A stretch of 64,000 bases of DNA from an uncultured Actinomycetota bacterium. Its GTDB lineage: Bacteria; Actinomycetota; Actinomycetes; Mycobacteriales; Mycobacteriaceae. The notes under the pieces are model-generated. The model was given only the letters and a program-made list of their open reading frames with translations. It was not told the origin of the DNA and did not search any database. Positions 4,823 to 64,000 of the stretch are shown here, one piece after another. A program made the translations under genes and the position numbers. The stretch's first letter is position 1, and every line of letters starts with the position of its first letter. Location: assembly GCA_963782405.1 (NCBI GenBank), contig CAWAJX010000012.1, positions 103,794-167,793 on the forward strand, read 5' to 3'.

Positions 4823-4840
4823 CGGTGCCGCCTTACGGGT

Positions 4841-5661: not shown

Positions 5662-5690
5662 GTGGTGACCTCGCGGGATACCGTCGCAGC

Positions 5691-6763: not shown

Positions 6764-6770
6764 GGGCCGT

Positions 6771-6829
6771 CACGACAACGCCCCGCGGTCCGGTTCCGAA
6801 TTCGGGACCGGCGGCGGGGCGTCGTCGTG
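6771..6829. terminator. Long hairpin between convergent genes (probable bidirectional terminator)
   Basis: CACGACAACGCCCCGC...GCGGGGCGTCGTCGTG outer stem plus CCGGTTCCGAA/TTCGGGACCGG inner stem. Confidence 0.6.
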
Positions 6830-6836
6830 TCCGGGG

Positions 6837-7544: not shown

Positions 7545-7645
7545 GGTTGCCACTCTCGGGCGCCGCGATGGTTTCGGGGAGGCCGGGTGCGGCCTGGTCC
7601 CGGCGGGGCTACCCGCCGCAGCGGGGAAGCGGGCAGACTGGAGGG

Positions 7646-9163: not shown

Positions 9164-9205
9164 CGCCTCGAGATTAGCCGATCTTGGTCGGATGACCGTA
9201 CTCGG

Positions 9206-11503: not shown

Positions 11504-11789
11504 CCTCGCTCGCTTCGAGATCGGTGGTACCCGGGCCCGCACCCGAGATAGGTGAATCCTCCCATGAATCTTGGTGAACTTGCCGATACCGTTACGTTAT
11601 ACGGGAATTCGCGCAGGGTGTGCCGAGGGCCGTGGGTCCGGTGACGGGAAGGTGCGCGGGTGCGGGCCGGCCGGCGGCGGGTTGCGGACGCAGTCTGGCA
11701 TTAGTTGACCGAAGCGAGATAGGCTCCGCGTGATCGTCTAGTCAACCGAGCGGCCGTTGGGGGGTCGTTCTCGTCGAAAGGGGACCGCG

Positions 11790-12536: not shown

Positions 12537-12579
12537 CGGCGGGCCGGTGCCGGCCCGCGATGACCTGTGGTCGCGCGTT

Positions 12580-12608
12580 GCCATACTGACGTAGGCTGAC
12601 GGTATGGC
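12580..12608. promoter_or_regulatory. Putative autoregulatory operator of the first TA pair
   Basis: Inverted repeat GCCATAC-N15-GTATGGC overlapping ATG 12604, with an internal CTGACG direct repeat. Confidence 0.45.
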
Positions 12609-12876
12609 GGAGACGAGGAAGGTGACGATCTCGGTCCCGAAGGACGATGTGTCCACCCTGGAGCGGTGGAAGGCCTCGGGACGGATCGACAACGTCTCCG
12701 CCTACGTGTCGGCTGCACTGCGCGATCGGATGGATCGGGATATCTCCTTGGACGCGATCGAATCCACCTTCGGAGGTGTGCCGCCGTTGGACCTGGTGAA
12801 TCAGGCCCGCGGGATGCAGGGATTGCCGCCGTTGACGGCGGAGGATCTGCGGCGCCCCAGCGCCGGCGCCGCGTGA
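12604..12876 (+). CDS. Putative antitoxin (ribbon-helix-helix-like)
   Basis: RKVTISVP strand followed by NVSAYVSAALRDRM helix; stop overlaps the next start (GTGA). Confidence 0.6.
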   Translation: MAETRKVTISVPKDDVSTLERWKASGRIDNVSAYVSAALRDRMDRDISLDAIESTFGGVPPLDLVNQARGMQGLPPLTAEDLRRPSAGAA

Positions 12877-13280
12877 GCCCGGCGGCTCTGGGCGGTGTCG
12901 TATTCGACACCGCCGCGGTGGTCGGCTGGACGCGGCGGCTGCCGTATGTGCATGCGGTGGCGTGGGCGACGGCGGAGGCGGGACACACAATTGTTGTGCC
13001 CGCCGCGGTCGCGGCGGCGGGTCAAGCACTGATCCGGCCGGATCGACTGGATATCCTCGCGGTATTGCTGGAGTTGCCGCACACCGTGGTCACCGGTCTC
13101 GATATCGGGGCGGCGTCGCGGGTGGCGGCTCTGCTGGCCGGCCGGTCGGACGCGGATGCGCTGATCGCGGCCGGACAGGCCGCCGGTGAGGCGGTAGCGC
13201 GCAATTGGCCGTGCCTGACCGCGCGGCCGGATATGTTGCGGCGCATCGACCATCAGGTTCTGGTCGATCCGCTGCCCTGA
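12873..13280 (+). CDS. Putative PIN-domain (VapC-like) toxin
   Basis: VVFDTAAV (first Asp), IVVPAAV, DADALIAA, CLTARPD layout; translationally coupled to the upstream gene. Confidence 0.6.
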   Translation: MSPAALGGVVFDTAAVVGWTRRLPYVHAVAWATAEAGHTIVVPAAVAAAGQALIRPDRLDILAVLLELPHTVVTGLDIGAASRVAALLAGRSDADALIAAGQAAGEAVARNWPCLTARPDMLRRIDHQVLVDPLP

Positions 13281-13314
13281 CCGACGGCCGCGTGAGGACG
13301 AGGAGAGGACCGCG

Positions 13315-13857
13315 ATGATGGCACCGGCCCTGAGCCCCAGGATTTCCCGGCTGCGTGGGCTGATCGACCATCCGGCCACACCGTCGGCCGAACGTGATGC
13401 GGCCCAGCGGATGCTGGATCGGATTCTTGCCAAGCATCCGCCGTCGGGGCCGGTGGGCGATCGCGATTACGGGCAGCGGTATCACCGGGTCGGCCGTCAT
13501 GCCACGCTGGGCAGCATCGCCGAAATGATCGGTCAGGACATCGCTTTCGCGAAGATCTTCAGCATGCCGCAGCATCGTGCCGAGATCGTCGAGCGGTCAC
13601 CGATCCGCGATGCGCCGGTGGAGATCGGCTATTCGGTAGCCGCACCGTATGTCGGCAAGATCATCGTGACGATCGAGGGGGTACCGCGGGAGTGGGGGTG
13701 GGTGAGCGATTGCGGGATCGACAATCCGAGTCCGGCGCTGCAGGAACTGGCCGACGAGGTGGCCGAGATCATGAATGCCTACAACCATGACGGCAGCGAT
13801 ATCGGTAAGCGGTTCTTCGCCGGCGTGCGGGTTCCGCAGCGCACGCTGATCTGGTGA
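13315..13857 (+). CDS. Hypothetical protein (N-terminal helical hairpin reminiscent of DUF2786)
   Basis: RISRLRGLIDHPATPSAERDAAQRMLDRILAKH; RBS GGAGAGG upstream. Confidence 0.65.
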   Translation: MMAPALSPRISRLRGLIDHPATPSAERDAAQRMLDRILAKHPPSGPVGDRDYGQRYHRVGRHATLGSIAEMIGQDIAFAKIFSMPQHRAEIVERSPIRDAPVEIGYSVAAPYVGKIIVTIEGVPREWGWVSDCGIDNPSPALQELADEVAEIMNAYNHDGSDIGKRFFAGVRVPQRTLIW

Positions 13858-13878
13858 GGCCGGCCCGCCGGTAGGTGA

Positions 13879-14811
13879 TCATCGCGGCGATGTGCCGAAC
13901 GGGGCGGCGCCTTCGCGCAATGCCTCGATCACGGCCGACACCTCCGGTGCTGGTGGGGCCGGCAGGCGGATCAGTGCGATGCGGCGTAGTTCGGCGGCGC
14001 CGTGGTGGTCCGGGCCGGTGACCACGCGCAGGCACACCACCCCGGCCGGCGGTGTGGGGAACAGGCCCGCCGGCACCGTGGTGACTCCGCAGCCGGCGGC
14101 GACCAGCGACAGTTTGGTCAGCCAGTCGCGGGCGCGATGCACGATGCGGGGACGACCGGGCAGGCCGGGCCACACACCGAGCATGGGCTCATCACCGGCG
14201 GGCGGACTCGCGATCCACGCGATGTCGGACAGTTCGTCGACGGTGACGGTGCCGCGACCGGCAAAGCGGTCGGTGGCGGGTGCGGCGACGAGTAGTTCCA
14301 CATCGGCGAGGTGGTCGACGGCCAGGCGCGGCAGTTCGGTGTCGGGCGGGCGGTGCGGCGGCCGCGAGGTAATGACGGCCAGGTCCAGGTTCCCGGCTCG
14401 GACCGCTCGTATCAGCGTGGGTGTGGTGGCTTCGCGGGTGGACACTTCGAGTGCGGGGTGAGTGTGGCGTAGGGACGCGAGCGCGTGGGGGATCAGGACC
14501 GCGCCGGCGCTGACGATTGCGCCGAGCCGGACCTGGCGGGGACGGTGGTCGATTCCGTCGAGTTCGCGCCGGGCCGCGTCGAGGGCGTCGAGGACGACGC
14601 GGGCGTGCCGGACCAGGGTCAGCCCGGCGGGGGTGAGTCGCACTCCGCTGTGGTGGCGGTCGAACAGTCGGGTGCCCGCGGCGTGTTCGAGTGCGGCGAC
14701 CTGGCGGGAGATCGCGGACTGGGTGTAGCCGAGGCTCACCGCGGCCGCGGTGAACGAGCCCCGTTCGGCGACCTCGGCCAGCAGCCGCAGTCCGGCCGGT
14801 GACAGTTCCAT
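13879..14811 (-). CDS. LysR-family regulator
   Basis: GSFTAAAVSLGYTQSAISRQVAALE...LFDR...LTPAG. Confidence 0.95.
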   Translation of the reverse strand: MELSPAGLRLLAEVAERGSFTAAAVSLGYTQSAISRQVAALEHAAGTRLFDRHHSGVRLTPAGLTLVRHARVVLDALDAARRELDGIDHRPRQVRLGAIVSAGAVLIPHALASLRHTHPALEVSTREATTPTLIRAVRAGNLDLAVITSRPPHRPPDTELPRLAVDHLADVELLVAAPATDRFAGRGTVTVDELSDIAWIASPPAGDEPMLGVWPGLPGRPRIVHRARDWLTKLSLVAAGCGVTTVPAGLFPTPPAGVVCLRVVTGPDHHGAAELRRIALIRLPAPPAPEVSAVIEALREGAAPFGTSPR

Positions 14812-14913
14812 GATTATCCGGCATACCAGATATGCCGAACATTCGCTGGCCGCATCGCACGATATCGACTTACGTTGGCGAGGAAGCGAATCGGTGATCG
14901 GAAGGAGGCCGCG

Positions 14914-16014
14914 ATGCATGCGGCGGTGTTGGAGCGGTTCGGGCAGCCGCTGACGGTGACGCGGGTGCCCGATCCGGTGGCGGGTCCGGGAGGGGTGCTG
15001 GTCGAGGTGCTGGCGACCTGTGTGCTGCCCTATGCGGCGGAGGTTTTCGGCGGGGCGCGGCGATATCCGCTGGAACCACCGGTGATTCCGGGGATGGGCG
15101 GGGTGGGGCGGGTGGTGACGGCCGGACCGGACGCGACCCGCCTGCGCACGGGCGACCTGGTGTGGTGTGATCCGACCGTACGCTCGCGCGACGATGCCCG
15201 CACACCCGACATCACGTTGCAGGGCTGGAGTTCACGCGGTGGGGGCGGGCTGCGGCTGTCGCGGCATTTTCATCACGGTTCGTTCGCCGAACTGATGGTG
15301 GTCCCCACCGAGAACGCGGTACCGCTGGGCGCGTTCGATCCGCAGGACAATGCGCGCTGGGCGGCGCTGGCGGTGTCGGCGGTGCCCTATGGCGGGTGGC
15401 TGGCGGCGGGTCTGCAAGCGGGAGAGACGGTGCTGGTCAGTGGGGCGAGCGGGAATTTCGGTGGTGCTGCGGTAGCGGTCGCGCTGGCGATGGGGGCGGC
15501 GCGGGTGGTGGCCCCCGGGCGCAATCGCGGCGCGCTGGCCCGGTTGCGGGAGCGCTTCGGTGATCGGGTCCGGCCGGTGGTGCTGACCGGCGATCCCGGC
15601 GCCGACACCGCGGCGATGCGATCGGCTGCCGGGCGCGCGGTGGATGTTGTCCTCGACATCTTGCCGCCTGCCGCCGATCCGGCGGCTGTGCGCGCCGCGG
15701 CGATGACGGTGCGCGAATTCGGCCGGGTGGTGCTGATGGGCGGGGTCGGGATGCTGGGCGGACCGGATCTGGCGTTGCCGTATCCGTGGCTGATGCGCAA
15801 CGGCGTGACGGTGCGCGGGCAGTGGATGTGTTCGCGGGCCGCGATCGCGCAGTTGATCGAGCTGGTCGATGCGGGATTGCTGAATTTGTCGGGGGAGACG
15901 GTCACGACCTTCGAGCTCGGTGAGGTGAATGCGGCGATCGCTCATGCCGCGGCCCATCCGGCGGCGTTCGATCGCACGATCCTGGTGCCGCGACACACAC
16001 CGGTGCCCGATTGA
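14914..16014 (+). CDS. MDR/zinc-binding alcohol-dehydrogenase-family protein
   Basis: MHAAVLERFG; GETVLVSGASGNFG; RBS AAGGAGG; divergent from the LysR gene. Confidence 0.85.
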   Translation: MHAAVLERFGQPLTVTRVPDPVAGPGGVLVEVLATCVLPYAAEVFGGARRYPLEPPVIPGMGGVGRVVTAGPDATRLRTGDLVWCDPTVRSRDDARTPDITLQGWSSRGGGGLRLSRHFHHGSFAELMVVPTENAVPLGAFDPQDNARWAALAVSAVPYGGWLAAGLQAGETVLVSGASGNFGGAAVAVALAMGAARVVAPGRNRGALARLRERFGDRVRPVVLTGDPGADTAAMRSAAGRAVDVVLDILPPAADPAAVRAAAMTVREFGRVVLMGGVGMLGGPDLALPYPWLMRNGVTVRGQWMCSRAAIAQLIELVDAGLLNLSGETVTTFELGEVNAAIAHAAAHPAAFDRTILVPRHTPVPD

Positions 16015-16015
16015 G

Positions 16016-16031
16016 TAATACCCGCGTATTA
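16016..16031. promoter_or_regulatory. Putative operator overlapping the -10 element of the second TA pair
   Basis: Perfect inverted repeat TAATAC-CCGC-GTATTA overlapping TATTAT, 10 nt before GTG 16042. Confidence 0.55.
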
Positions 16032-16041
16032 TGGTGACTGC

Positions 16042-16353
16042 GTGGAGTACGCATGGTGGATCGGAGTCCACTCGTTCCTGGCTCGGGCGGATGTGGCGCC
16101 CTGGGAGGTGATGGAAGTGTTGTACTCGTCTCGGCGCTGGCCGCGCCCGGCCCGCACCGCCGCGGGCCTTCCGGTCGCCACCGTGTGGGGCCGTACCGAC
16201 GACGGCCGGCCGCTGGTGGTGCTGCTGCGGGAGCTGCCGACTCCCGTCGATATTCAGCAGATACAGTCGCGGGGCACGTGGGAGATCATCATGGCCGCAC
16301 AGATGCGCTCGCGACAGCTCGAGGAATTCACGGCATGGGAGGCGAACCGATGA
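16042..16353 (+). CDS. Putative BrnT/RelE-fold-like toxin
   Basis: EVMEVLY ... VWGRTDDGRPLVVLL ... IIMAAQM...QLEEF resembles the BrnT GRTxxGRxLxVV...IxAR pattern; ATGA overlap with the next gene. Confidence 0.5.
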   Translation: MEYAWWIGVHSFLARADVAPWEVMEVLYSSRRWPRPARTAAGLPVATVWGRTDDGRPLVVLLRELPTPVDIQQIQSRGTWEIIMAAQMRSRQLEEFTAWEANR

Positions 16354-16673
16354 GCCACGATCACACCTTCGAACCGAACCCCGGCGCCGACCCGCAGGCG
16401 CTGGTGGACGCGCTGGTCTTCGACGACACCGCGCCCGCGCCCACGCTGCCGCCCACCGGTGCGGAGATCGAGCGCGGCATGGTGACCACCTCGCTGAAGC
16501 TGCCGAAGGATCTGCGCGACCGCGTGCGCGAGGCGGCCGCCGAGCATTGCGTCACGCCGTCGATGCTGATCCGCCAGTACATCGAGATGGGGTTGCTGGC
16601 CGAGCAGCCCGGCCGGATGATCCCGCTCTCGGATGCGATCCGGGTACTGAGCAGCTTGCGCCCGTCGGCGTGA
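16350..16673 (+). CDS. CopG/RHH-domain protein (putative BrnA-like antitoxin)
   Basis: MVTTSLKLPKDLRDRVREAAAEHCVTPSMLIRQYIE RHH after an acidic, Pro-rich N-terminus. Confidence 0.65.
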   Translation: MSHDHTFEPNPGADPQALVDALVFDDTAPAPTLPPTGAEIERGMVTTSLKLPKDLRDRVREAAAEHCVTPSMLIRQYIEMGLLAEQPGRMIPLSDAIRVLSSLRPSA

Positions 16674-16676
16674 GAT

Positions 16677-17231
16677 CTACATCCGGCTGAGGATGTCGAG
16701 CGCGATCCGCGTCGCCGCCGCGTTGCTCTGCTCGTCGCTCAGGTCCAGATCGCCCATCATCGACAGGCTCCAGCTCACCGCGAGCAGTGCTTGGCGGGCG
16801 TGGAAGATCGCCGGCGGCGACTGCTGCGGTGCCGCCACCAGATCGCCCAGCACCCGGAACTGGTAGCGCAGCCCCGTGCCGATGTCCAAGGCCCGGAACG
16901 CGGACTGGTTCTCGGTCCAGAACCGGATCATGCTCTTGCCGAGACCGTGGAGCAGTGCGCCGTAGCGCAGCACGATCTGTTCGGAACGCTGCGGACCGGG
17001 CGCCTGGGTCTGCGCCCACGCCACGATGTCGTCGATGCCGGCGCGCAGATCCTCCGACAGGCTGACGACGATGTCCTCCTTACTGCGGAAGTGGTAGTAG
17101 AGCGCGGCCTTGGTGACCCCGAGTCGTTCGGCGATCTCGCGCAGCGAGGTCTTGTCGTAGCCGTGCTCGGCGAACAATTCCATGGCCACCGCGCGGATCC
17201 GTTCCCGCGTGTCACTTCGACGCCTGTCCAT
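16677..17231 (-). CDS. TetR-family regulator
   Basis: TSLREIAERLGVTKAALYYHFRSKE. Confidence 0.95.
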   Translation of the reverse strand: MDRRRSDTRERIRAVAMELFAEHGYDKTSLREIAERLGVTKAALYYHFRSKEDIVVSLSEDLRAGIDDIVAWAQTQAPGPQRSEQIVLRYGALLHGLGKSMIRFWTENQSAFRALDIGTGLRYQFRVLGDLVAAPQQSPPAIFHARQALLAVSWSLSMMGDLDLSDEQSNAAATRIALDILSRM

Positions 17232-25133: not shown

Positions 25134-25161
25134 GCCCCGCCGCCGTCCGGGGCGGCGGGGC
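25134..25161. terminator. Hairpin between convergent operons
   Basis: GCCCCGCCGCC-GTCCGG-GGCGGCGGGGC 11-bp stem. Confidence 0.6.
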
Positions 25162-25743
25162 TCAGGCCACGGAGCTGGTGGCCCGGGAGATGAGATGTTC
25201 GACAAGGGTCATCAGCACCGTCTTGCAGGAGCTGCGGTCGCGGGCATCGCAGAGCACGACCGGAATGTGGGTGTCGAGATCGAGCGCCTCGCGCACTTCC
25301 TCGGTCGTGTAGATCGGGGCGTTGTCGAAGCAGTTCACCGCGATCGCGAAGGACAGGCCGCGCCGCTCGAAGAAGTCGATGGCGGCGAACGAGTTCTCCA
25401 GGCGACGGGTATCGGCGATCACCACCGCACCGAGCGCCCCGCGCGCCAATTCGTCCCACAGGAACCAGAATCGGTCCTGGCCCGGGGTGCCGAACAGATA
25501 CAGCACGAGATTCTGATCGATGGTGATTCGACCGAAGTCCAGCGCGACGGTGGTGGTGGTCTTGCCCTCCACACCCGACAGATCGTCGATGCCGGTGGAC
25601 ATTTCGGTGATCAGCTCTTCGGTGCGCAACGGCGTGATCTCGCTGATCGACGACACCATGGTGGTTTTCCCGACGCCGAAACCTCCGGCTACGAGGATTT
25701 TGACCGAGGCAGCCAAGTCGGTCGAGGACGAAGTTTCAGGCAC
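25162..25743 (-). CDS. Small ATP/GTP-binding protein (conservon CvnD-like)
   Basis: KILVAGGFGVGKTT; TTVALDFG; GTPGQDRF; AVNCF; CDAR. Confidence 0.95.
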   Translation of the reverse strand: MPETSSSTDLAASVKILVAGGFGVGKTTMVSSISEITPLRTEELITEMSTGIDDLSGVEGKTTTTVALDFGRITIDQNLVLYLFGTPGQDRFWFLWDELARGALGAVVIADTRRLENSFAAIDFFERRGLSFAIAVNCFDNAPIYTTEEVREALDLDTHIPVVLCDARDRSSCKTVLMTLVEHLISRATSSVA

Positions 25744-25749
25744 GGTGTT

Positions 25750-26133
25750 CTACAGCTTTCGGATTCCATCGAGTACTGCACGCAGGATATTCAATTCGCC
25801 GGTGGCACCAGCATCGGTGTCGGCACGGGCCGGGGCCCGGAACTTCAGCAGACCATCGCCGATGAGGTCACCGACAAGGATCTTGGTCACCGCCAGCGGC
25901 AGCGTCAATCTCGCCGAGACCTCCGCCACCGATTGCGGATTCCGGCAGAGCCGGACAATTTCCACGTATTCGGGTTCGATGCGCCGCAGCGGCGGACCCG
26001 CCGGCACGATCACCACCAGGGTGAGCATGTCCAGATCGTGTCCCGCCCCCATGGTGCGGCCCCGCGTCACGGCGTACGGACGGACCAGGGGGCCGGCCGC
26101 ATCGTCGAACCACGGTTGACCGAAGCGCGTCAT
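25750..26133 (-). CDS. DUF742 wHTH protein (CvnC-like)
   Basis: GPLVRPYAVTRGRT ... SVAEVSARLTLPLAVTKILVGDL ... VLDGIRKL. Confidence 0.9.
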   Translation of the reverse strand: MTRFGQPWFDDAAGPLVRPYAVTRGRTMGAGHDLDMLTLVVIVPAGPPLRRIEPEYVEIVRLCRNPQSVAEVSARLTLPLAVTKILVGDLIGDGLLKFRAPARADTDAGATGELNILRAVLDGIRKL

Positions 26134-26555
26134 GACAATCTATGCTCCACGTGCTCGGCCAGACCGTTTCGAGGATCGGTGGACAGGTATCCGCCGACCC
26201 GCTGCACGGTCAGATTCATCTCGTAGGCCACCATACCCAGATTCGCGTTCTCGTTGGCCTGCAATGCGATACAAGCATTGTCACCGGCGGCGGTGACGAA
26301 CAGCACCGCACGATCGAGTTCGATGACGGCCTGCCGGACCCCGCCGCCGTCGAAGCGGTTACCGGCACTGCGCGCGAGTCCGTAGAGGGTGGCCGACATG
26401 GCACCGAAGTGTTCGGCGTCCTCACGGCTCATCGAGGTGGAGCGGCCCAGCAGCAGGCCGTCGGTGGAATGCACCACCGCGTAGCGCACCCCGGCCAGGC
26501 GATCGACCAGATCGTCGAGCAGCCAGTTCAGATCACCTACGTTGGAAGAAGTCAC
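26130..26555 (-). CDS. Roadblock/LC7 protein (CvnB-like)
   Basis: LNWLLDDLV...STDGLL...ANLGMVAYEM. Confidence 0.9.
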   Translation of the reverse strand: MTSSNVGDLNWLLDDLVDRLAGVRYAVVHSTDGLLLGRSTSMSREDAEHFGAMSATLYGLARSAGNRFDGGGVRQAVIELDRAVLFVTAAGDNACIALQANENANLGMVAYEMNLTVQRVGGYLSTDPRNGLAEHVEHRLS

Positions 26556-28983
26556 CTTCGCCTTCCTGTTCGTCCGGAGTGGAATAGCCGGGCTGCGAGC
26601 GCCGGCCCTGCCTGGTCCCGTTCTCGATGGCGGACATCAGGTCTCGTGCCTGTTCCGCCGAGCGCGGCCGCTGTTCCACATCCGATTCGGGTTGGGGGTC
26701 GTGCGCCAATTCCGGTGCCAGACTTGCCTGTCGGCGGCGGCGGGGCAACGGTGGGCGGGCATCACTGCCAGTGTATGACGGGCGCTGCGGGGCGCGGCGA
26801 GCCGGTTGCTCGGCCGGGGCGGGCGGCTCGTGCCGGGACTGGTAGCGGCTCGGCGCCTCGTAGCGGTCCGGCTGCTCTTCGCGGGCGGGCGGCTCGGTAT
26901 CGGTGCGGCCGTAGTCGGACCAGGTATCGGTGCGCGGCGGCAGCGTTGCCAGACCGGTTGCGGCCGGGGCGGATTCGGCCGCCGAGATGGCGGGGATCTC
27001 ACCGGTCATGGTCGGTTCCGGCCGGCGCCCGGAGAATCGCTCAGGCAGGTGATCGGCCATCGGCGCATCGGCCGCGACCACGGCGGTCGGCACCAGCACG
27101 ATCGCCCGGATGCCGCCGTAGTCGGATTCCGACAGCCGCACCGTGACGCCGTGGCGGGCACCGAGCTGCGCCACCACGAACAGGCCCAGCCGTGAGTTCG
27201 CCGACAGCGTCGCGACCCCGAAATCCGGTGGGTTGCGCAGCATTTCGTTGGCACGCTCGAGTTCGTCGGCCGCCATGCCCATGCCCTGATCGCTGATCTC
27301 GATGGCGACGCCCTTGCCGACCACGTTGCTGCTCACCTCGACCCGCGATTGCGGTGGCGAGAAGGATGTGGCGTTGTCGACCAGCTCGGCGAGCAGGTGG
27401 ATGAGGTCGGCGACGACGGTGCCGACGATGAACACCTGCGGCATGCGATGGGCGCGCACCCGTGCGTAGTCGAGGGTTTCGCCGATCGCGCTGCGCACCA
27501 GCTCCACCAGCGGAACCGGGCGCCGCCACTGCCGGCCGGGCTCGCCGCCGCCGAGGATGATGAGGTTCTCGGCGTTGCGGCGTTCGCGGGTGGCCAGGTG
27601 GTCGAGCCGGAAGAACGTCTCGAGCAGCGCCGGGTCCTCCTGCTGCCGTTCGGCCTCGTCGAGAATCTCGAGCTGGCGATGGACCACGATCTGGCTGCGG
27701 TGCGCGATGTTCAGGAAGACCGCGCGCACACCTTCGCGGGTGCGGGCCTCGGTGACCGCGGCCGAGACCGCGGCGGTGTGGGCGCGGTTGAACGCCTTGG
27801 CGACCGAACCGATCTCGTCGTGGCCGAAATCGAGCCGGGCGGCCTCGGTTTCGACGTCGATCTCCTCGCCCTCGCCGAGCCTGCGCATGGTTTCGGGCAG
27901 CCGGACCTCGGCCAGTGCGAGGGTTTCGGTCCGCAGCCGCTTGAGGCGGCCGATCAGCCGGTTGGCCAGCCACAGCGACAGCAGGAAGGCGATGATCGCG
28001 AGTGCGAGGACGCCGGCGCCGGCCCACAGCGAATTCGTCGCGGTGCGTTCACCGTCTCGGACCGCGGTCTGGTTGGCGTTGTCGTTCTGGTACTGCCAGG
28101 CGGCGAGCAGCTGATCGCCGAGTTGCTCCGCCGTCGTGCGCCAGTCGTCGAAACTCATCGGCGGTGGCGGCAGCTCACCGGACTTGTCCGGAGCGGGAGG
28201 ATGGATCAGGTAATCCTCCATGGCCGCGAGTTGCTGCCAGGCGGGTGAACCGATCACGACCTTGATCTTGCCGGCTGCCGGGCCGGTGAGATCGTCTGCC
28301 AGCTGCGGGATCTCGGTGCGGTAGTAGCCGACCAGATTGCGGTAGTCGTCACGCATCTGCCCGGCCAGCGCGGGACCGCTGAGTTCGGCGGCGGTCAGGG
28401 CCTGGCTGCGCGACATACCTTCCATCGCGTGCAGGGTGCGCAGGCCGCCGGCGAGTTCCTGGGCGACCGCGGCGTCGGGGGCGGTCGGGATGACGAGATT
28501 GGTGCCGAGGACGACGGCGTCGAGAATCTGGTTGTAGATGCCGTAGGTCTGGGCGAGTGGCAGTGCGCCGGCGTCGATACCGCCGCGAATCTGCGGGAGC
28601 TGCTTCTTGAGCGTCTCGAAACCGCCGGTGTCCTGCCCCATCCGGTTGTCGACATCGTTTGCCATGAGCGCGGATTCGGTGGAGGCCAGCGCCTCGAGCG
28701 CCTTGTCGAGCCGGGCGCGGGCGGCGGCGAGAGCGCCGGGGTCGGTGCGCTGTCCGGCCAGATGCCACAGCGAGAGCATGCGCTCCTGTTCGACCGCGGC
28801 GATCATCTCGCGGGTGTGGACATTGGCGCTGCCGAGAATGGCCGCCCAGTCCTTCGCGTGTTGCCCCTCCCGTACCAGATGGCTCGCTGTCCCCACACCG
28901 ACTCCGAGCAACGCCAGGCTTGGAACCACTGCAATGGCCAGGATGCGGGTCCGGATTCCGAGCCTCGCTCTCAACATCGGCAC
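26533..28983 (-). CDS. Membrane sensor histidine kinase/ATPase with NIT-like sensor and HAMP domain (CvnA-like)
   Basis: Two TM segments; DEIGSVAKAF; FRLDHLATRERRNAENL; LAELVDNATSFS; DQGMGM; LGLFVV. Confidence 0.9.
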   Translation of the reverse strand: MPMLRARLGIRTRILAIAVVPSLALLGVGVGTASHLVREGQHAKDWAAILGSANVHTREMIAAVEQERMLSLWHLAGQRTDPGALAAARARLDKALEALASTESALMANDVDNRMGQDTGGFETLKKQLPQIRGGIDAGALPLAQTYGIYNQILDAVVLGTNLVIPTAPDAAVAQELAGGLRTLHAMEGMSRSQALTAAELSGPALAGQMRDDYRNLVGYYRTEIPQLADDLTGPAAGKIKVVIGSPAWQQLAAMEDYLIHPPAPDKSGELPPPPMSFDDWRTTAEQLGDQLLAAWQYQNDNANQTAVRDGERTATNSLWAGAGVLALAIIAFLLSLWLANRLIGRLKRLRTETLALAEVRLPETMRRLGEGEEIDVETEAARLDFGHDEIGSVAKAFNRAHTAAVSAAVTEARTREGVRAVFLNIAHRSQIVVHRQLEILDEAERQQEDPALLETFFRLDHLATRERRNAENLIILGGGEPGRQWRRPVPLVELVRSAIGETLDYARVRAHRMPQVFIVGTVVADLIHLLAELVDNATSFSPPQSRVEVSSNVVGKGVAIEISDQGMGMAADELERANEMLRNPPDFGVATLSANSRLGLFVVAQLGARHGVTVRLSESDYGGIRAIVLVPTAVVAADAPMADHLPERFSGRRPEPTMTGEIPAISAAESAPAATGLATLPPRTDTWSDYGRTDTEPPAREEQPDRYEAPSRYQSRHEPPAPAEQPARRAPQRPSYTGSDARPPLPRRRRQASLAPELAHDPQPESDVEQRPRSAEQARDLMSAIENGTRQGRRSQPGYSTPDEQEGEGDFFQRR

Positions 28984-29206
28984 AACATAACTGGCAATGT
29001 TTCAAACTTCAGGTCGGATACCACTGAGCGAGACCAATATTGACTTTCCTGCACCCCTATGAGTTTGCAGGTAGGAATTGGTTTTTGGGGAAGATCCAAT
29101 GATCGGCACCGGAATTCATTGTGGCAAGTCACACGTTTGACCGCCCGGCCATATAGATGCCGCGGAATATGGTGCACCGCAGCGGGATCGACATGCCGGA
29201 AACCCG

Positions 29207-57298: not shown

Positions 57299-57569
57299 GC
57301 GGGCAATCTAGCGGCTATCGGAACAGGATCGGTGCCAACACACCGGGTTCGCGCTGGGTCCGTCGTAGCATCATGTGCGACCGAAGACATCCGAGCCGAG
57401 GCGCCGACCGGCGCATTGCCCGCACCGGCGACTCTCGTCGCGGATGCCGAAGGTGGACCGACAGCACCGTCGTCGGGGCCGACCCGGTAGCGTGGCGCCG
57501 CGCGCCGACGCTACCGACGGCCCTTGCGCGCTTCGCGTACCGATGGTTCGACATTTCGAAAGGAATTGT

Positions 57570-58532
57570 ATGCCAAAGGATTTGACGCAGTTGCAGTTGC
57601 TCACCGAGCTCGAGCCCGTGGTTGCCACGACCATGGACCGGCACCTTGCCACTGCCAAGGAATGGCATCCGCACGACTATGTGCCCTGGGACGAGGGTCG
57701 CAACTTCGCCGCCATGGGCGGGGACGACTGGGAACCGGGGCAATCCCGGTTGTCCGAAGTGGCCAAAGTCGCGATGATCACGAATCTGCTCACCGAGGAC
57801 AATCTGCCCTCCTATCACCGGACCATTTCCGAGCATTTCTCCAGCGACGGCGCGTGGGGTACCTGGGTCGGCCGCTGGACCGCGGAGGAGAATCGGCACG
57901 CGATCGCCATGCGCGACTATCTCGTCGTGACCCGCGGGGTGGACCCGGTCGCGCTGGAGAACGACCGGATGGTGCACATGACCCGCGGTGTCCACGCACC
58001 CGACGACTTCGCGGGTGTCCTGGACCAGGTCGCGTATGTGACGTTCCAGGAGCTGGCGACCCGGATCAGCCACCGGGCCACCGGCCGCGTCTGCGGCGAT
58101 CCGGTCGCCGACCGCATGCTTGCCCGGATCGCGACCGACGAGAACCTGCACATGATCTTCTACCGCACGATCACCGCCGCGGCGTTCGACCTGTCGCCGG
58201 ATCAGACCATGGAATCGGTCACCAAGATCGTCAAGAGTTTCGCGATGCCCGGTACCGGGATGCCGAACTGGCGCCGCAACGGTGTGCTGATGGTGAAACA
58301 CGGAATCTACGATCTGCGTCAGCACCTCGACGAGGTCCTCAACCCGGTGCTGCGGAACTGGAACGTCTTCGAACGCACCGATTTCACCGCTCGGGGCGAG
58401 CGCAGCCGGGAGGAACTCTCGGAATTTCTCGACAAGCTCGGCCGCGATGTCGTTCGCTTCGAGGAGCAACGCGCCCGCATCCTGGCGCGCGAGGCGGCCA
58501 AGGCCGAGGGGCGCAATCCGGTTCAGGTGTAG
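57570..58532 (+). CDS. Acyl-ACP desaturase (DesA1-like di-iron protein)
   Basis: LLTEDNLPSYH; WTAEENRH; FQELATRISH; DENLH; RBS GAAAGGA. Confidence 0.95.
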   Translation: MPKDLTQLQLLTELEPVVATTMDRHLATAKEWHPHDYVPWDEGRNFAAMGGDDWEPGQSRLSEVAKVAMITNLLTEDNLPSYHRTISEHFSSDGAWGTWVGRWTAEENRHAIAMRDYLVVTRGVDPVALENDRMVHMTRGVHAPDDFAGVLDQVAYVTFQELATRISHRATGRVCGDPVADRMLARIATDENLHMIFYRTITAAAFDLSPDQTMESVTKIVKSFAMPGTGMPNWRRNGVLMVKHGIYDLRQHLDEVLNPVLRNWNVFERTDFTARGERSREELSEFLDKLGRDVVRFEEQRARILAREAAKAEGRNPVQV

Positions 58533-58883
58533 CGGGAGTCGTGTGGAAGCCGCGGTCTCGAGCGGCGGCGCCGCCGAATTTCCCGATCCGGACAGCCCCG
58601 CAGATGTGAGCCGAGGTGGTGAGGGCCGCTCGTGAACAGCCTCAGGCGCCCTCGATTCCGGGTGCGAATCCTGTTCTCGCGCTTCGGTGCTGACCACACA
58701 ACGTTGTAGTGCCGGCACCGATGCGGTGCTCGAATATATGCAGCGCAATGTCGATGGGTGACAACAGATGCCGACGCGCCGGTCCCGGTCCCGGTGACCG
58801 GAATCCGGGCCCGGACGCGCCGCGGCGCTTGGTATCACGGAGGGCCGATCACTTCGGCGGTGGCGCGATCGACGAGGACTTCC

Positions 58884-60306
58884 ATGCAGGATCTGTTCGA
58901 CAACACCGATATGACCGGTCTGGCCGCGGCGGTCGCGGGCGGCGAGGTATCGGCCGGGGAAGTGGTCGAATTCAGCCTGAACCGCATGCGGGAGCGCAAT
59001 CCCGCGATCAACGCGATCGTCGGTGAACGCGGCGAGCAGGCACTGCGCGAGGTGGCGGCCGGCCTGCCGAAGGGACCGCTGCGTGGCATCCCGTTCGTGA
59101 TCAAGGACCTCCACATGGATGTCGCGGGGTTGCCGACCACCAACGGTTCCCGCCTGTTCGGCGACGCCGTGGCCACCGCGGACTCCGAACTGGTCGCGCG
59201 GTACCGGCGCGCGGGCCTGGTGATCATCGGTAAGACGAATGCGCCGGAGTTCGGGCTGAACGCGAGCACCGAGCCGTTGTTGTTCGGGCCGACCCGCAAC
59301 CCGCACCGCCTCACTCATTCCGTCGGCGGCTCCTCGGGCGGGCGGCGGCGGCGGTCGCGAGCGGCATCGTGCCCGCCGGGCAGGCGAGCGACGGCGGTGG
59401 CTCGATCCGAATACCGGCCTCGGCATGTGGACTCGTGGGCCTCAAACCCAGTCGCGGACGGGTGCCCGCGTTCCCCGCGCGCAATCTGCTGGCCGCGCCG
59501 ATGGCCGTTAACCACGCGGTGACCCGCAGCGTGCGGGATTCGGCACTGTTGCTCGATATCGCCGCGGGCCCCGTTCCGGGTGATCCGTATGTCATCGCAC
59601 CGGCGTCGAAACCGTACGCGGAGATCGTGCACACCGCCCCGGGACGCTTGCGGATCGGCATCGCGACCACACTTCCCTCGGGTGCCGAGGTACATCCGGA
59701 TTGTGTTGCCGTGACCCGGGATATCGCGGGGTTGCTCTCCGATCTCGGTCACGACGTGCGAGACGAGGCGCCCGACTTCCCGGTCGAGGAAATCATGAGC
59801 GGCCTGCAGTATCTGATGGCGGTCCCGGTGGCCGTGGAGGTGAACAACCGGCTGGTGCAGCTCGGGCGCGCACTGCTCGACGACGATCTCGAGCCGATGA
59901 CTTGTGTGATCTACGATCACGCCGAGCGGACCGGCGCGGGGGACTACGTCCGGGCGCTGCGCGACCTCGAAAAGGCCGCGACCCTGCTCGGGGGCTACTT
60001 CGGCGCCCACGATCTGTTGCTGACCCCGACGCTGGGCACGGTGGTACCGCCGCTGGGAATGCTCGACACGACCGACCCGGCGTCGCTGTGGGAGCACGGG
60101 ATGTCGTTCAGCGGCATGACGAGTCCGTTCAATGTGACGGGCCAGCCGGCGATCTCACTGCCGCTGGGACCGACAGTTCCGGGATGCCGGTCGGTGTTCA
60201 GCTGGTCGCCGCGTTCGGACGCGAAGATCTGCTGCTGCGGGCGGCGGCACAGCTCGAGGCGACGCGGCCCTGGAATACCGCGCCGATCTGGCCGCCCGCC
60301 GGGTGA
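58884..60306 (+). pseudogene. Amidase-signature enzyme split by two single-base frameshifts (near 59340 and 60170)
   Basis: GIPFVIKD; GKTNAPEFG; GGSSGG | ASDGGGSIRIPAS ... LPLG | GMPVGVQL in three successive frames. Confidence 0.85.
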
Positions 60307-60325: not shown

Positions 60326-61123
60326 CTACGCGAACCCGGCCGTGATGTAACTCGCGGCCGCGGTCGTCCAGGTGACATCGGTACCCGGCATGTCCTTGGC
60401 CGGATACAGCACGTGCTGGCCCTCGGGATAGGGCGTGAGGTAGCCGATCACGCCGTTGATCGCCGCCGCATACCGCTGCAGGTTGGCCAGTGGATTGAGC
60501 ATCAGGAATTGCTGGAGCTGGGCGAAGATCAGGTAACTCACATTGCCCACCCGCGCGCCCTCGACGAACGAGAACGGCGAGATTCCCGCGGCGATGATGC
60601 GCAGCGGTGAATCGGCCGGTGATGCGGTGATGATGTCGCCGGGGTTCGCGTACTCCCGGGTCGCCACCCCGGCGGGCCAGCCGGCATGCTGGCCGTACAG
60701 CCCGAATGTCGTGGGCGGGCACAGGTTGTTCACCGAATCTCCCGCTCGGCGTAGAGGATTGGCGATGAACACGGCGAAGGCGATCTCCAGTGGACTGCCG
60801 TCGGTATTGGTGTACCGGCCCGACGCGACGCCCTCGAGAATCCGGCTCGCGCAGATGCCGCCGAGCGAATAGCTCAGCAGCCCACAGACATTCGGTGATT
60901 GCTGGATCGCCTGCACGCCTGCCTCGGTACCCTCCCGCACCGAGGTTTCCAATGACGGCCCCCACAGATCGGGATCGGGCCCCACCGCTGCGGGCCAGTC
61001 CGGTTCGAAGAAGCTGAAACTGTCGGTGGAAAGCAGATCGGTCACCGCGGCCAGCAAACCCGCGGGTGATCCGTCGGCATTTCGTGTCTCGCCGGTTCCT
61101 CGCAACGTGATGATGTCGATCAT
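60326..61123 (-). CDS. Cutinase/PE-PPE-like alpha/beta hydrolase (LysB-like)
   Basis: ITLRGTGE (oxyanion strand), SYSLGG nucleophile elbow, IANPLR, GDIIT, terminal GQHVLY; no signal peptide. Confidence 0.75.
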   Translation of the reverse strand: MIDIITLRGTGETRNADGSPAGLLAAVTDLLSTDSFSFFEPDWPAAVGPDPDLWGPSLETSVREGTEAGVQAIQQSPNVCGLLSYSLGGICASRILEGVASGRYTNTDGSPLEIAFAVFIANPLRRAGDSVNNLCPPTTFGLYGQHAGWPAGVATREYANPGDIITASPADSPLRIIAAGISPFSFVEGARVGNVSYLIFAQLQQFLMLNPLANLQRYAAAINGVIGYLTPYPEGQHVLYPAKDMPGTDVTWTTAAASYITAGFA

Positions 61124-61283
61124 CGGGTCCTCCTCACCCGCGCCGAAACTCCCCGTACCTCTACGGTAAACCCGCGAGACCGGCTCGGCCAGGGATTACG
61201 GCGCGTCGGTCGCGACGCACCCAGATTGTCGTAGCGCCGTTACCCGTGCGCGTCCGCCCGCTCGCGGAGTACGGTCGGCAACT

Positions 61284-61895
61284 GTGAGACGAAGTCCGAT
61301 GGTGTGGTGGCTGATCGCCGTTGCCGTGATGTCCGTCGCCGGCTGTACGCAGCAGCCGGCGACCGAATCCCGCGACGACGATGCGGGTTCGGCGGTGCAT
61401 GCGGGTTCGCTGCCGCCGGACAGCGGGACGCCCGCCCAGCAGAGCGCCGATGCCGTTGTGCCGCAGTGCCGGACATCGGATCTGTCGGCCGCGGTGGGGC
61501 CGGGCAATGCGGCGGCCGGAACGGTCGCCTTCCCGATCGTGTTCACCAACAACGGGTCCGGTACCTGTGCGCTCGCGGGTTTCCCCGGCGTCTCCTACAG
61601 CGAGGCGGCCGACGGCGCACCCGTGGGCGCGCCCGCGGTACGGGAGGGCGCGGCGTCGGCGCCGGTGCAGATCTCGCCCGGCGGGCAGGCGTCGGCACTG
61701 GTGTTCGCGGTCGACGTGCACAACATTCCGGCCGATCAGTGCCGGCCGGTCCAGGTGCCGGGGCTGCGAATCTACCCGCCCGACAACACCGAATCGCTGT
61801 ACGTCGAGCGGTCCGCGACAGCGTGCGGTAACACGCAGGTGACCACGACACAGCTGCGCGTACGCGCGATGGTAACCGGCGCCGACGGCCGCTGA
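61284..61895 (+). CDS. DUF4232-like lipoprotein
   Basis: SVAGC lipobox; CRTSDL...GNAAAG...FTNNG..TCALAGFPGV...GLRIYPP. Confidence 0.85.
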   Translation: MRRSPMVWWLIAVAVMSVAGCTQQPATESRDDDAGSAVHAGSLPPDSGTPAQQSADAVVPQCRTSDLSAAVGPGNAAAGTVAFPIVFTNNGSGTCALAGFPGVSYSEAADGAPVGAPAVREGAASAPVQISPGGQASALVFAVDVHNIPADQCRPVQVPGLRIYPPDNTESLYVERSATACGNTQVTTTQLRVRAMVTGADGR

Positions 61896-62054
61896 TCCGT
61901 GACATCACGGATTTCGTTGCCACATCGGCGATTACGACGCGATTACGAGAAGTGCCCAATCGATCACGGAGCGGGTGCCGAACCGGGACAATGAAATAGC
62001 CAACCATCCGTACCCGGCCGGGATCCAGGGCCGGTCGACCTCTCGGAGGGGTTC

Positions 62055-63005
62055 ATGGTCGATTCGCTTTTCGCCGACGTATCCGAGTTCCAGGTTCCGG
62101 TCGACGACTCCTACCCGTATCAGCTGTTCTCGTTCCGTTCCAATGACGGGACCTATCAGGACCACAACTTCTATCGGAACTACGCCTGGGCGGCCGCGGC
62201 CGCCGACGCGGGGCGAATAGCCTGCTTCATCGTCTACTTCTATTGGCGGCCGAATTGGCTCGACACCGTCGACAACCACCGGAGCATGGTGGGGCAGGCG
62301 GGCGGGCCGCATCCGAAGATGATCACCATGATCAATGTGGAGTCGGGCGGAAATCCGGGCGGTGATCAGTCCGACGGCATCAATCGCGCGTACTGGCGGC
62401 TTGCCGACTGGCTGGGATCCACGCGCCGCGTCATCGGCTACGCCAACCGGCCGGACTTCGACAGCATGTGGCGGGTGCGCCCGGACGGGCTCAACATGGT
62501 CGGTGCCGGGTACGGCAGCAATCCGAATCTGCCCGGCCAGATCGCACATCAGTACACCGACGGCCAGGGCTACGGTGGCGGCCTGCCCGAGGGCGCCTCC
62601 CCGTTCGGGAACTGCGATATGAATTCCGCCGACGGATTCTCACCGGCGGAATTCGCCAATCAGGTCGGTGTCGGCGTCCTCACGCCGGATCCCGTGACCG
62701 ATATGTGGATTCAGTTCATGGGCATCGGCGGTAACGGCTGGCCACAGCTGGCCGGTCATACCCTCGTCGACGGTGTCGCCGCCGTCGGGCAGACTCTCGG
62801 CCTGCCCGGTTTCGTGGCGCCGCCGGGGCCGACCCAGATCCCGCTGCCCCGCGACTCCGACGGCCGGATCCGCGACGAATGGATTCAGATGCGCGGAGTG
62901 CAGGGCACCGGCTGGCCGCAGCTCGGTGGCCGGTCGCTCGTCGACGCCATCGCCACCATCGGGCAGAAACTCGACATCGCCGGCTTCCAGCCACCTACTC
63001 GATAA
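62055..63005 (+). CDS. GH25-like lysin (actinophage LysA-like) with two C-terminal wall-binding repeats
   Basis: FADVSEFQ; RSNDGT; INVES; HQYTDG; CDMN; twice WxQxxGxxGxGWPQLxGxxLVD; RBS GGAGG. Confidence 0.8.
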   Translation: MVDSLFADVSEFQVPVDDSYPYQLFSFRSNDGTYQDHNFYRNYAWAAAAADAGRIACFIVYFYWRPNWLDTVDNHRSMVGQAGGPHPKMITMINVESGGNPGGDQSDGINRAYWRLADWLGSTRRVIGYANRPDFDSMWRVRPDGLNMVGAGYGSNPNLPGQIAHQYTDGQGYGGGLPEGASPFGNCDMNSADGFSPAEFANQVGVGVLTPDPVTDMWIQFMGIGGNGWPQLAGHTLVDGVAAVGQTLGLPGFVAPPGPTQIPLPRDSDGRIRDEWIQMRGVQGTGWPQLGGRSLVDAIATIGQKLDIAGFQPPTR

Positions 63006-63029
63006 CACCCCCACCAACGGAGCACTCGA

Positions 63030-63365
63030 ATGCCGACAATCGCGAGCACGAACGGCCGCTTCTTCGTTGTCACCGACTGTGTCCCACAGGTGCAGGCGGC
63101 GGCGACAGCCGCCGCCGCGGGCGGGAGCCTCGCCGCCCTCACCTCGGCTACGGTCGCCGAGATCACCTTCCCGGAGGGAGCCTTCAGTACCGTATCCGAC
63201 TGCGACACAACACAATCCGGGCCCACGGCTTGGTTTTCCACCTATAACGGCGGAGTCCCGATCGGCTGCGTCTACGCGGTCGACCTCACCACGGGGCGGG
63301 TGTGGACCGAGAACGCCAACCAGGCCGCGGCATGGACCCGATTCGTCCTCGCCGCATCCGGATAG
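63030..63365 (+). CDS. Hypothetical protein in the lysin operon
   Basis: RBS GGAG; 24 nt after the lysin stop; no TM segment or signal peptide. Confidence 0.7.
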   Translation: MPTIASTNGRFFVVTDCVPQVQAAATAAAAGGSLAALTSATVAEITFPEGAFSTVSDCDTTQSGPTAWFSTYNGGVPIGCVYAVDLTTGRVWTENANQAAAWTRFVLAASG

Positions 63366-63381
63366 GCAAGGAGGCCGGGCC

Positions 63382-64000
63382 ATGGCGACGCATTGGGGCA
63401 CTGCGATCACCGGATACGCCGGGAGTACGGCGAAACAGTTCGGAGTGGGTGGTACCGATCTCGGAATCCCTTATGTCCGTGAGCAGTTCGAGGCGAACGG
63501 TTCGGGATACGTTTTCGGCGACACCTTCACCGGTGACAGCCAGGGTTCCGGCACCTGGCTGGGCTCGCCGGTGCTGCTGTTGGGCCCGGCCCTTCCGGAT
63601 GCCACCACCACCTTCACCGCCACACCCGGGGGAGCGGCGGCACAGCAGGCCCTGACCTACGCCCACAATGCCGACAACGGGTACGGCACCGAGGTCAGCC
63701 GGATTCCCAACGACGCCTACGTCGACCCGAACGGGCGAACCTGGCTGACCTACACCAGCGTTCACGACTGGAATGCGCCCGACGACCGCTACGGGGCATT
63801 GTTCTGCGGGCTCGCGTTCTCCGACGACGACGGCAGCACCTGGACCGACTACGCGGCCGTCCGGCTCAACGACGGCAGCGACGGTTACGGCGGCTGGAGC
63901 CCGTTCATGATGCAGTCCTTCGCCGGGATCGGGAACAACAACGCCGACGGCTACCTGTACATCGTGTCGAAGGAATGGGGGCGCAAGCACAATCGCGACG
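63382..64000 (+). CDS. DUF4185/GH183-like endo-D-arabinanase candidate (partial, runs off the window; not in the ORF track)
   Basis: RBS AAGGAGG; ATG 63382; open to the window end; GTDLG, FGDTF, GSP, IPND, SDDDGSTW (Asp-box) and DGYLY motifs. Confidence 0.75.
   Translation, partial: MATHWGTAITGYAGSTAKQFGVGGTDLGIPYVREQFEANGSGYVFGDTFTGDSQGSGTWLGSPVLLLGPALPDATTTFTATPGGAAAQQALTYAHNADNGYGTEVSRIPNDAYVDPNGRTWLTYTSVHDWNAPDDRYGALFCGLAFSDDDGSTWTDYAAVRLNDGSDGYGGWSPFMMQSFAGIGNNNADGYLYIVSKEWGRKHNRD

Follow-up and report, generated by a model that had tools for sequence, protein, structure and literature searches.

Why does a Nocardia chromosome hold, next to one another, relatives of the enzymes with which actinophages open the walls of their hosts? 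The question is raised by the last 3.7 kb of a 64,000-nucleotide (nt) stretch of DNA (assembly GCA_963782405.1, contig CAWAJX010000012.1, positions 103,794 to 167,793), the whole of which is called the window here. The window is a high-GC (about 0.67) segment of Nocardia chromosome that originates from a soil metagenome and belongs to the N. nova group. Its closest sequenced relative is Nocardia sp. NPDC052254, in which the local gene order is identical and the lysin shares 93% amino-acid identity. The region contains five genes, which encode a LysB/cutinase-like esterase, a DUF4232 lipoprotein, a LysA-like lysin, a protein of 111 amino acids (aa) and a DUF4185 protein. The original prediction had named four of these open reading frames (ORFs), all of which are confirmed with their family assignments by ORF calls, Pfam, PHROG and fold comparison at the coordinates given below; it had overlooked the DUF4232 gene and an unusual residue, Asn94, in the lysin. 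The best overall explanation, to which we assign a probability of about 0.5, is that the locus is a domesticated, holin-less lysin operon for controlled wall opening or autolysis. The two parts of this proposal are not equally firm. Sequence comparison makes it very probable that a phage-type lysin operon was domesticated and is now selected and phage-free, and the holin-less, lysis-type mode of action is put forward tentatively.

A LysA-like lysin and its small partner

The lysin gene (62055-63005, plus strand) encodes a 316-aa protein that was recognized through its fold and its homology to phage LysA. The protein yields no Pfam-A match at E ≤ 0.1, including to the Glyco_hydro_25 model, and no PDB match by sequence or profile; it carries the precomputed Pfam annotation PF27131 (Rv3766_C). 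Judged from the predicted structure, its relationship to GH25 is visible solely via the fold and phage LysA. The AlphaFold2 model, built on 27 homologues, has a predicted local distance difference test (pLDDT) score of 83 and places a GH25-fold catalytic domain at residues 1-205 (62055-62669). The top nine PDB fold matches found by Foldseek are all GH25 muramidases (E 6e-8 to 1.5e-4, target TM score 0.34-0.70), led by Ply40, LytC, the Bacillus anthracis GH25 enzyme, CTP1L and PlyB with TM scores of 0.65-0.70 on the target. A viral structure library returns LysA proteins and lysozymes, the best match being Lysin A of Mycobacterium phage Cuke (E 1e-18). At the sequence level, tblastn aligns the lysin with the lysin A of about 500 mycobacteriophage and Gordonia phage records (546 matching) at 49-62% identity, and its glycoside hydrolase (GH) domain alone with that of 286 mycobacteriophage records at 53-62%. 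The lysin also matches endolysin PHROGs 26250 and 3084. A further match to PHROG 5963, labelled holin (residues 13-79, E 7.8e-5), falls inside the GH25 barrel, and we take that PHROG to be mislabelled.

How does the lysin differ from a complete phage LysA? Residues 3-284 align with the central and C-terminal parts of the 526-aa LysA of phage Mendokysei (gp26), which has about 168 additional N-terminal residues and whose gene lies between tail genes and the holin gene. Because the match begins at the GH domain and covers the centre and C-terminus of that protein, the alignment indicates that the Nocardia lysin is a LysA from which the N-terminal peptidase is missing. A gene for the glycosidase domain alone is also found in Gordonia phages. 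The chromosomal GH25/LysA family to which the lysin belongs is large (625 proteins at E ≤ 0.001), and its members share the accessory domains M23, NlpC/P60, C39 and LGFP with phage LysAs. The C-terminal part of the lysin consists of two repeats, one at residues 214-256 (62694-62822) with the motif W-I-Q...GWPQL...LVD and the PF27131 annotation, and the other at residues 272-314 (62868-62996), where PHROG 700, an endolysin C-terminus, matches residues 279-311 (E 1.9e-5). The two repeats align with a score of 132, against 24.5 ± 4.7 for shuffled sequences, and are of the phage LysA type; the actinophage-type repeats that the original prediction had seen are thus significant. C-terminal modules of this kind are regarded as putative wall-binding modules (Payne & Hatfull 2012, PMC3314691).

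The catalytic centre of the lysin is conserved with one exception. D8, S10, Q13, E96 and D188 are invariant across 80 sequences, including the one from the window; the N-terminal Asp of the D-V-S-x-x-Q motif and the C-terminal Asp are assigned catalytic roles as in Cpl-1-type GH25 enzymes. The D-x-E motif reads D-V-E in 79 of 79 relatives and N94-V-E96 in the window, where the codon AAT (62334-62336) encodes Asn at the Asp position. Both the ENA and the Logan assembly of the organism yield an identical lysin protein.

The 111-aa gene (63030-63365, plus strand) lies directly 3' of the lysin gene, as it does wherever it occurs, and we propose from its distribution that its product is the obligate, previously undescribed partner of the lysin. 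Of 35 loci compared, 30 have it 15-54 nt 3' of the lysin gene, and these represent two or more chromosomal contexts; the 35 species-level genomes or loci, each of which encodes a protein closely related to the 316-aa lysin, underlie the counts out of 35 given here. The protein occurs only in Nocardia, with 17 clusters in a set of 5.8 billion proteins, and its profile finds 11 matches among 1.84 billion representatives. Cys17 and Cys58 are invariant in 17 close orthologues, and when distant members are included Cys17 remains nearly invariant and Cys58 does not.

What kind of protein is it? Pfam gives no match even at E ≤ 10. A relationship to Ms6 Gp1 or to any other phage protein was rejected, as tblastn against 50,697 phage records at E ≤ 1 found no meaningful homologue. 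A holin was likewise rejected, with hydropathy peaking at 1.24 over 19 residues in a stretch rich in Ala, Gly and Thr. Profile matches to the PDB are at chance level, and one to gasdermin (E 0.6) is not believed. Its N-terminal 50 or so residues can be aligned to the beginning of a Lectin_C repeat that Pfam confirms (E 6e-5; hhalign probability 65%).

The predicted arabinanase, the esterase and the lipoprotein

The third gene of the operon (63382-64000, plus strand) has the first 206 of its 351 codons in the window. The remainder of the gene (in L001, 11328-12383) and 9 kb beyond the window end came from two further assemblies of the organism, those of ENA and Logan. The 206 residues in the window match Pfam PF13810 (DUF4185) with 114.4 bits against a gathering threshold of 39.5 (E 8e-33), and the complete 351-aa product is annotated with the same family; sequence-level PDB searches with this protein and with the lysin gave nothing useful. 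The product is predicted to be a GH183 endo-D-arabinanase. D26 (in GTDLG) and D47 (in FGDT) are invariant in an alignment with distant phage homologues and fit the catalytic Asp pair of GH183 that was defined by mutagenesis as D170/D188 in DgGH4185b and D39/D56 in Rv3707c (PMC10115798), a mapping made by spacing and motif. DUF4185 proteins are known from actinophage lysis cassettes and are also conserved wall enzymes of Mycobacteriales (PMC10115798). In Gordonia phage DalanDe the domain forms the C-terminus of gp55, a 1064-aa "lysin A". The subfamily to which the window protein belongs (at least 77% identity) occurs in 19 species genomes, and its gene lies directly 3' of the lysin gene in 17 of the 19. 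The lysin, 111-aa and DUF4185 genes are separated by 24 and 16 nt, and each has a GGAG-type ribosome-binding site (RBS), so that the tight spacing and good RBSs noted originally are borne out.

The esterase gene (60326-61123, minus strand) is divergent from the lipoprotein gene and the lysin operon and encodes a 265-aa serine esterase. Pfam finds no match, and PHROG 102 (endolysin) matches residues 4-260 with E 9e-29. By tblastn, the protein is 25-33% identical to annotated lysin B proteins of Gordonia, Nocardia and Rhodococcus phages, and its profile weakly matches the cutinase-like structures 5W95 and 3AJA and the D29 gp12 LysB (3HC7). S86, D163 and H237 are invariant in 21 homologues; the nucleophile pentapeptide S-Y-S-L-G begins with Ser, not with the Gly of the G-x-S-x-G type. 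These positions are close to those of the D29 LysB triad, S82/D166/H240 (PMC6116114), and the protein is predicted to be a mycolyl-arabinogalactan esterase. Of the three enzymes, DUF4185 is found by Pfam, the lysin is assigned by PHROG, fold and LysA homology, and the esterase is assigned by PHROG and its similarity to lysin B. The cluster gives no NCBIfam or PADLOC hits.

Between the esterase and the lysin lies the DUF4232 gene (61284-61895, plus strand; 203 aa; Pfam PF14016, E 5e-33). The N-terminus of its product, MVWWLIAVAVMSVAGC, contains a hydrophobic signal peptide followed by a VAGC lipobox, and this lipoprotein is the sole exported product predicted in the cluster. The DUF4232 gene lies 5' of the lysin gene in 25 of the 35 loci. 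The lysin operon is preceded by a leader (61896-62054, plus strand) that contains a GGAGGGG RBS and the direct repeat GATTACGA-CGC-GATTACGA. About 110 nt 5' of the lysin gene are conserved across contexts in an alignment of ten loci, three of which (L019, L022 and L034) have different flanks. The leader matches no Rfam family or riboswitch and contains no consensus sigma-70 promoter; the conserved sequence with its direct repeat may be an operator or a promoter.

Phage context, conservation and selection

Could the hydrolases carry signal peptides that miscalled start codons conceal? The esterase, lysin and 111-aa ORFs contain no in-frame start codon 5' of the annotated start, and the only alternative starts of the DUF4185 gene lie inside the upstream genes; the DUF4185 start at 63382 is preceded by a strong RBS, AAGGAGG. 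No segment of these four products is hydrophobic enough to span a membrane. Hidden signal peptides were thus rejected, and the start-codon, RBS and hydropathy analyses bear out the earlier claim that the hydrolases lack them. The cluster also encodes no holin and no small protein with multiple transmembrane segments.

The absence of phage genes extends well beyond the cluster. A scan of Pfam-annotated gene calls over window positions of about 16000-64000 and the 9 kb downstream, together with the ten main ORFs of window 1-16000, found no phage gene but metabolic, regulatory and ordinary envelope genes. N. nova SH22a, whose genome is complete, also has all five cluster genes, with no phage gene within 10 kb on either side of them. 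The upstream genes encode acyl-CoA dehydrogenase, short-chain dehydrogenases/reductases, TetR regulators, VWA, polyprenyl synthase, luciferase-like, rhomboid, YkuD, META, S8 peptidase, enoyl-CoA hydratase, desaturase and amidase proteins; the ten main ORFs of window 1-16000 are non-phage. Downstream lie genes for a secreted 145-aa protein, an HrpB helicase, an alcohol dehydrogenase, a TetR regulator, a sigma factor, a DUF6328 protein and aconitase. The procedure does recognize a prophage, as it did for a paralogue fused to an M23 peptidase in Nocardia sp. CDC159, where tape-measure, tail and holin genes surround it. The statement that the window contains no holin or phage gene therefore holds for what was scanned, and the proposed inspection beyond position 64000 revealed neither structural genes nor a holin gene in 9 kb.

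A true Nocardia prophage lysis cassette serves as a contrast to the window locus: in L092 (1-13000), tape-measure and tail genes are followed by a 461-aa M23-GH25 LysA gene and then by genes for 88-aa and 112-aa proteins and a Phage_holin_2 gene.

How widely are the five genes kept together? The DUF4185 gene lies 3' of the lysin gene in 17 of the 35 loci. The pair of lysin and 111-aa genes also occurs in a second context, between a Dyp peroxidase-GH1 and a PucR-PDH neighbourhood (L022), and the lysin operon is an accessory element that a subset of Nocardia carries at differing chromosomal sites. From this gene order, the conserved relocatable unit appears to be the lysin gene with the 111-aa gene, with or without the DUF4185 gene. 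The esterase gene behaves differently. It is found in nearly all Nocardia species (75 clusters), and in N. brasiliensis it adjoins a TetR-aconitase (acn)-Rv1476-ripA neighbourhood with no lysin nearby. The esterase gene and the lysin operon lie on separate contigs in several strains and are unlinked in several species; they are adjacent in 10 of the 35 loci, all from the N. nova clade. Because the esterase is genus-wide and adjoins the operon only in that clade, the set attacking three wall layers is not one evolutionary unit. The original prediction of a domesticated module that dismantles the mycolyl-arabinogalactan-peptidoglycan (mAGP) wall is thus upheld in its domestication, through the phage-free surroundings, the synteny and the selection described below, and in the gene neighbourhood of the N. 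nova clade, and is weakened where it treats the three-layer kit as a single unit. Two genes (441 and 334 aa) come after the DUF4185 gene in N. nova SH22a, but they have no relevant domains, transmembrane segments or holin features and were placed outside the module; one of them is also present in L003, and it is absent from the window.

Pairwise comparison with nine genomes gave ratios of nonsynonymous to synonymous substitution rates (dN/dS) of 0.06-0.20 for the lysin, 0.12-0.14 for the esterase, 0.14-0.18 for DUF4185, 0.15-0.49 for the 111-aa protein and 0.25-0.49 for DUF4232. Because these values are well below 1, the cluster genes are, by this measure of their sequences, functional and under purifying selection rather than relics. 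The synteny across Nocardia, which had been suggested as a check, holds, and together with these ratios it favours domestication.

Do other Nocardia loci combine lysin genes with host genes? Nocardia sp. NPDC005825 (L091, 10001-11985) has a phage-free operon in which a GH25-only gene (215 aa) overlaps a cutinase-like gene (240 aa) by 4 nt and is followed by a DUF1353 gene; a DUF4232 gene lies two genes 5' of that operon, and a protein with C39-peptidase and Rv3766_C domains is encoded 5 kb away. At four other loci, from several Nocardia species (L042, L045, L046 and L049, at about 8001-16800), 273-aa GH25/LysA-like paralogues are encoded directly 5' of ORFs of 2,365 to more than 2,650 aa. The long ORF of L045, the one that was scanned, encodes a TcA-like ABC-toxin subunit (ABC_toxin_N, E 1e-45; Neuraminidase-like; TcA_TcB_BD). 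By analogy, this pairing of GH25 and TcA-like genes may represent toxin release in an actinomycete that resembles the type 10 secretion system (T10SS). Because the window operon, the GH25/cutinase operon and the TcA-linked paralogues occur together in the genus, the recruitment of phage lysins for host functions seems to be recurrent in Nocardia.

Elsewhere in the window, an amidase-signature gene next to the cluster (58758-60306) is broken across three reading frames by two frameshifts. The window and the ENA contig of this organism disagree by 1-nt indels at no fewer than eight sites, so that an assembly error is as likely here as a pseudogene; at the matching position, N. nova SH22a lacks an amidase. 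An Rfam ASdes small RNA (57888-57955, minus strand; 67.5 bits, gathering threshold 40) lies antisense inside the fatty-acid desaturase gene (57375-58532), and a SAM riboswitch (RF00162; 51704-51794, minus strand; 50.5 bits, gathering threshold 44.4) is found further upstream. A conservon-like set at about 25150-29000 (minus strand) encodes a NIT-domain sensor (815 aa), a Roadblock/LC7 protein, a DUF742 protein and an ATP_bind_1 GTPase.

Mode of action, rival explanations and known systems

How might enzymes that lack signal peptides act on a wall that lies outside the membrane? In the proposed mechanism, the enzymes would be made in the cytoplasm like phage lysins, with the Sec and Tat signal-peptide routes closed to them, and would act most likely at high expression or upon membrane damage. 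Once outside, the lysin would cleave the glycan strands, the arabinanase the arabinan, and the esterase encoded nearby the ester between mycolate and arabinogalactan, so that the mAGP wall would open in a controlled way or undergo autolysis. The 111-aa protein could serve as an export or holding chaperone, analogous and not homologous to Ms6 Gp1, or as a lectin-like targeting subunit. Phage biology offers precedents for such a mode of action. Mycobacteriophage LysAs all lack signal peptides, and expression of some of them from a plasmid, the GH25-type Kostya gp33 among them, makes M. smegmatis lyse with no holin present; in Ms6, LysA is exported by a Sec route that the small chaperone Gp1 assists (PMC6116114).

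Several points weigh against this explanation. Wall access is assumed, as the locus revealed neither a holin nor any other route of export, and no RNA-seq run containing the locus was found. The muramidase activity of the window lysin may be attenuated or abolished because Asn94 replaces the otherwise invariant Asp of the D-x-E motif. The presence of a GH183 gene need not mean lysis, since AraH1 and AraH2 serve endogenous wall metabolism (PMC10115798). The esterase is largely unlinked, so that the three-layer set may have arisen by lineage-specific juxtaposition and have no function in common. No confident fold was obtained for the 111-aa protein (its AlphaFold2 model is unusable, with a pLDDT of 39), and the weak similarity of this protein to lectins is a lead only.

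The enzymes might instead be ordinary envelope-remodelling or housekeeping enzymes that are exported continuously by a non-classical route, either SecA2 or chaperone-assisted Sec, with their clustering reflecting co-regulation. This alternative, which we consider rather unlikely, gains from the role of GH183 enzymes as conserved wall enzymes of Mycobacteriales (PMC10115798), from the near-ubiquity of the esterase in Nocardia and its proximity to the acn-Rv1476-ripA wall-hydrolase neighbourhood in N. brasiliensis, and from the strong purifying selection on all genes. It also agrees with the L,D-transpeptidase (YkuD) gene 8 kb upstream and with the chaperone-assisted Sec export documented for the signal-less Ms6 LysA (PMC6116114). 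However, an operon of lysin and 111-aa genes, with or without DUF4185, that only a subset of Nocardia carries at varied sites does not look like housekeeping. Moreover, AraH2 has a signal peptide after start correction (PMC10115798), which the window DUF4185 protein cannot have, and the lysin is as near to phage LysA (up to 62% identity) as to its Nocardia paralogues (61-67%).

A more far-reaching version of the lysis proposal is unlikely. It would make the locus a self-contained operon for demolition of the mycolata wall, switched on in a subpopulation, either for programmed lysis that releases DNA, vesicles or nutrients or fragments hyphae, or for killing; the 111-aa protein would act as gate or targeting factor, and DUF4232 would provide self-protection.

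Less probable still is an interbacterial weapon against competing mycolata that a lysing subpopulation or vesicles would release and from which DUF4232 or the 111-aa protein would protect the producer. The substrates suit such a role, as arabinan and mycolyl esters exist only in mycolata, and the lysin relocates together with a small co-inherited gene in the manner of a toxin-immunity pair. DUF4232 is exported, evolves fastest (dN/dS 0.25-0.49) and has a gene near the second GH25/cutinase-like operon; GH25 paralogues stand beside TcA-like toxin genes in other Nocardia, and release of Tc toxin by a lysis cassette is known (PMC10847048). The cluster, however, is linked to no secretion system, toxin-delivery domain or holin and yields no PADLOC or toxin-family hit, the 111-aa protein is predicted to be cytoplasmic, the wrong compartment for immunity to a wall hydrolase, and DUF4232 is widespread in actinobacteria and absent from the operon in its second context.

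The edge of a prophage or tailocin, which the original prediction had considered equally possible, or a decaying functionless remnant is very improbable: every enzyme has homologues in actinophage lysis cassettes and some Nocardia paralogues lie in real prophages, but the metabolic and regulatory, non-phage genes scanned in the 60 kb upstream and 9 kb downstream and the phage-free SH22a locus refute the edge, and dN/dS values of 0.06-0.2 for genes that are intact in at least 17 species rule out a dead remnant.

Why would a domesticated lysin operon for controlled wall opening matter? There is demand for enzymes that take the mAGP wall apart, both as tools and as agents against mycobacteria, and an engineered LysA/LysB cocktail has been described (PMC11064574). 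The locus appears to be a natural, selected, non-phage operon that couples a LysA-type muramidase with a GH183 arabinanase beside a LysB-like esterase. If host-controlled lysis or wall opening is its function, mycolata have put phage lysins to uses of their own, and the locus becomes a test case for the holin-independent passage of signal-less lysins across the membrane. If the enzymes serve ordinary remodelling, the locus would still add new members to the GH183 and LysB-like enzymes and offer a candidate for their regulator or chaperone.

How does the locus compare with known systems? In the literature searched, no description was found of chromosomal, phage-free LysA/LysB/GH183 clusters in mycolata. 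The mycobacteriophage lysis cassettes, such as D29 gp10-gp12 and Ms6 gp1-gp5 (PMC3314691, PMC6116114), are alike in the GH25-type central domain, the C-terminal repeats, the LysB-like triad esterase and the lack of signal peptides. In contrast to them, the Nocardia locus has no holin, N-terminal peptidase or phage genes; its esterase is divergent, a lipoprotein gene lies between esterase and lysin, a GH183 gene and a Nocardia-specific 111-aa gene are added, and the genes show vertical inheritance and purifying selection. Ms6 also encodes a small protein beside a signal-less LysA, but the Gp1 gene lies 5' of lysA, whereas the 111-aa gene lies 3' of the lysin gene and has no detectable phage similarity.

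The pairing of a peptidoglycan hydrolase with a GH183 arabinanase is shared with the LysA-DUF4185 proteins of Bendigovirus-type Gordonia phages (GMA6 "PhageGH4185", PMC10115798; DalanDe gp55). DalanDe combines both in one 1064-aa fusion encoded beside membrane proteins, whereas Nocardia has separate genes with the 111-aa gene between them, and the phage DUF4185 domains are just 29-32% identical to that of Nocardia. AraH1 (Rv1754c) and AraH2 (Rv3707c) belong to the same Pfam family and keep the catalytic Asp pair (PMC10115798). The AraH2 signal peptide has no counterpart in the Nocardia protein, where about 25 residues precede the first catalytic Asp and no signal peptide is possible, and the Nocardia subfamily, unlike these enzymes, is tied to a LysA-like gene. 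The T10SS and the Tc lysis cassette of Yersinia entomophaga (PMC10847048) likewise retain phage lysis enzymes in the chromosome for a host function, but they keep a holin (and spanin) and an identifiable cargo, neither of which the Nocardia locus has. Each enzyme family at the locus is thus known, and so is the domestication of phage lysins in other bacteria; what is new is a predicted holin-less operon that joins a phage-type lysin to a genus-specific partner and a GH183 enzyme.

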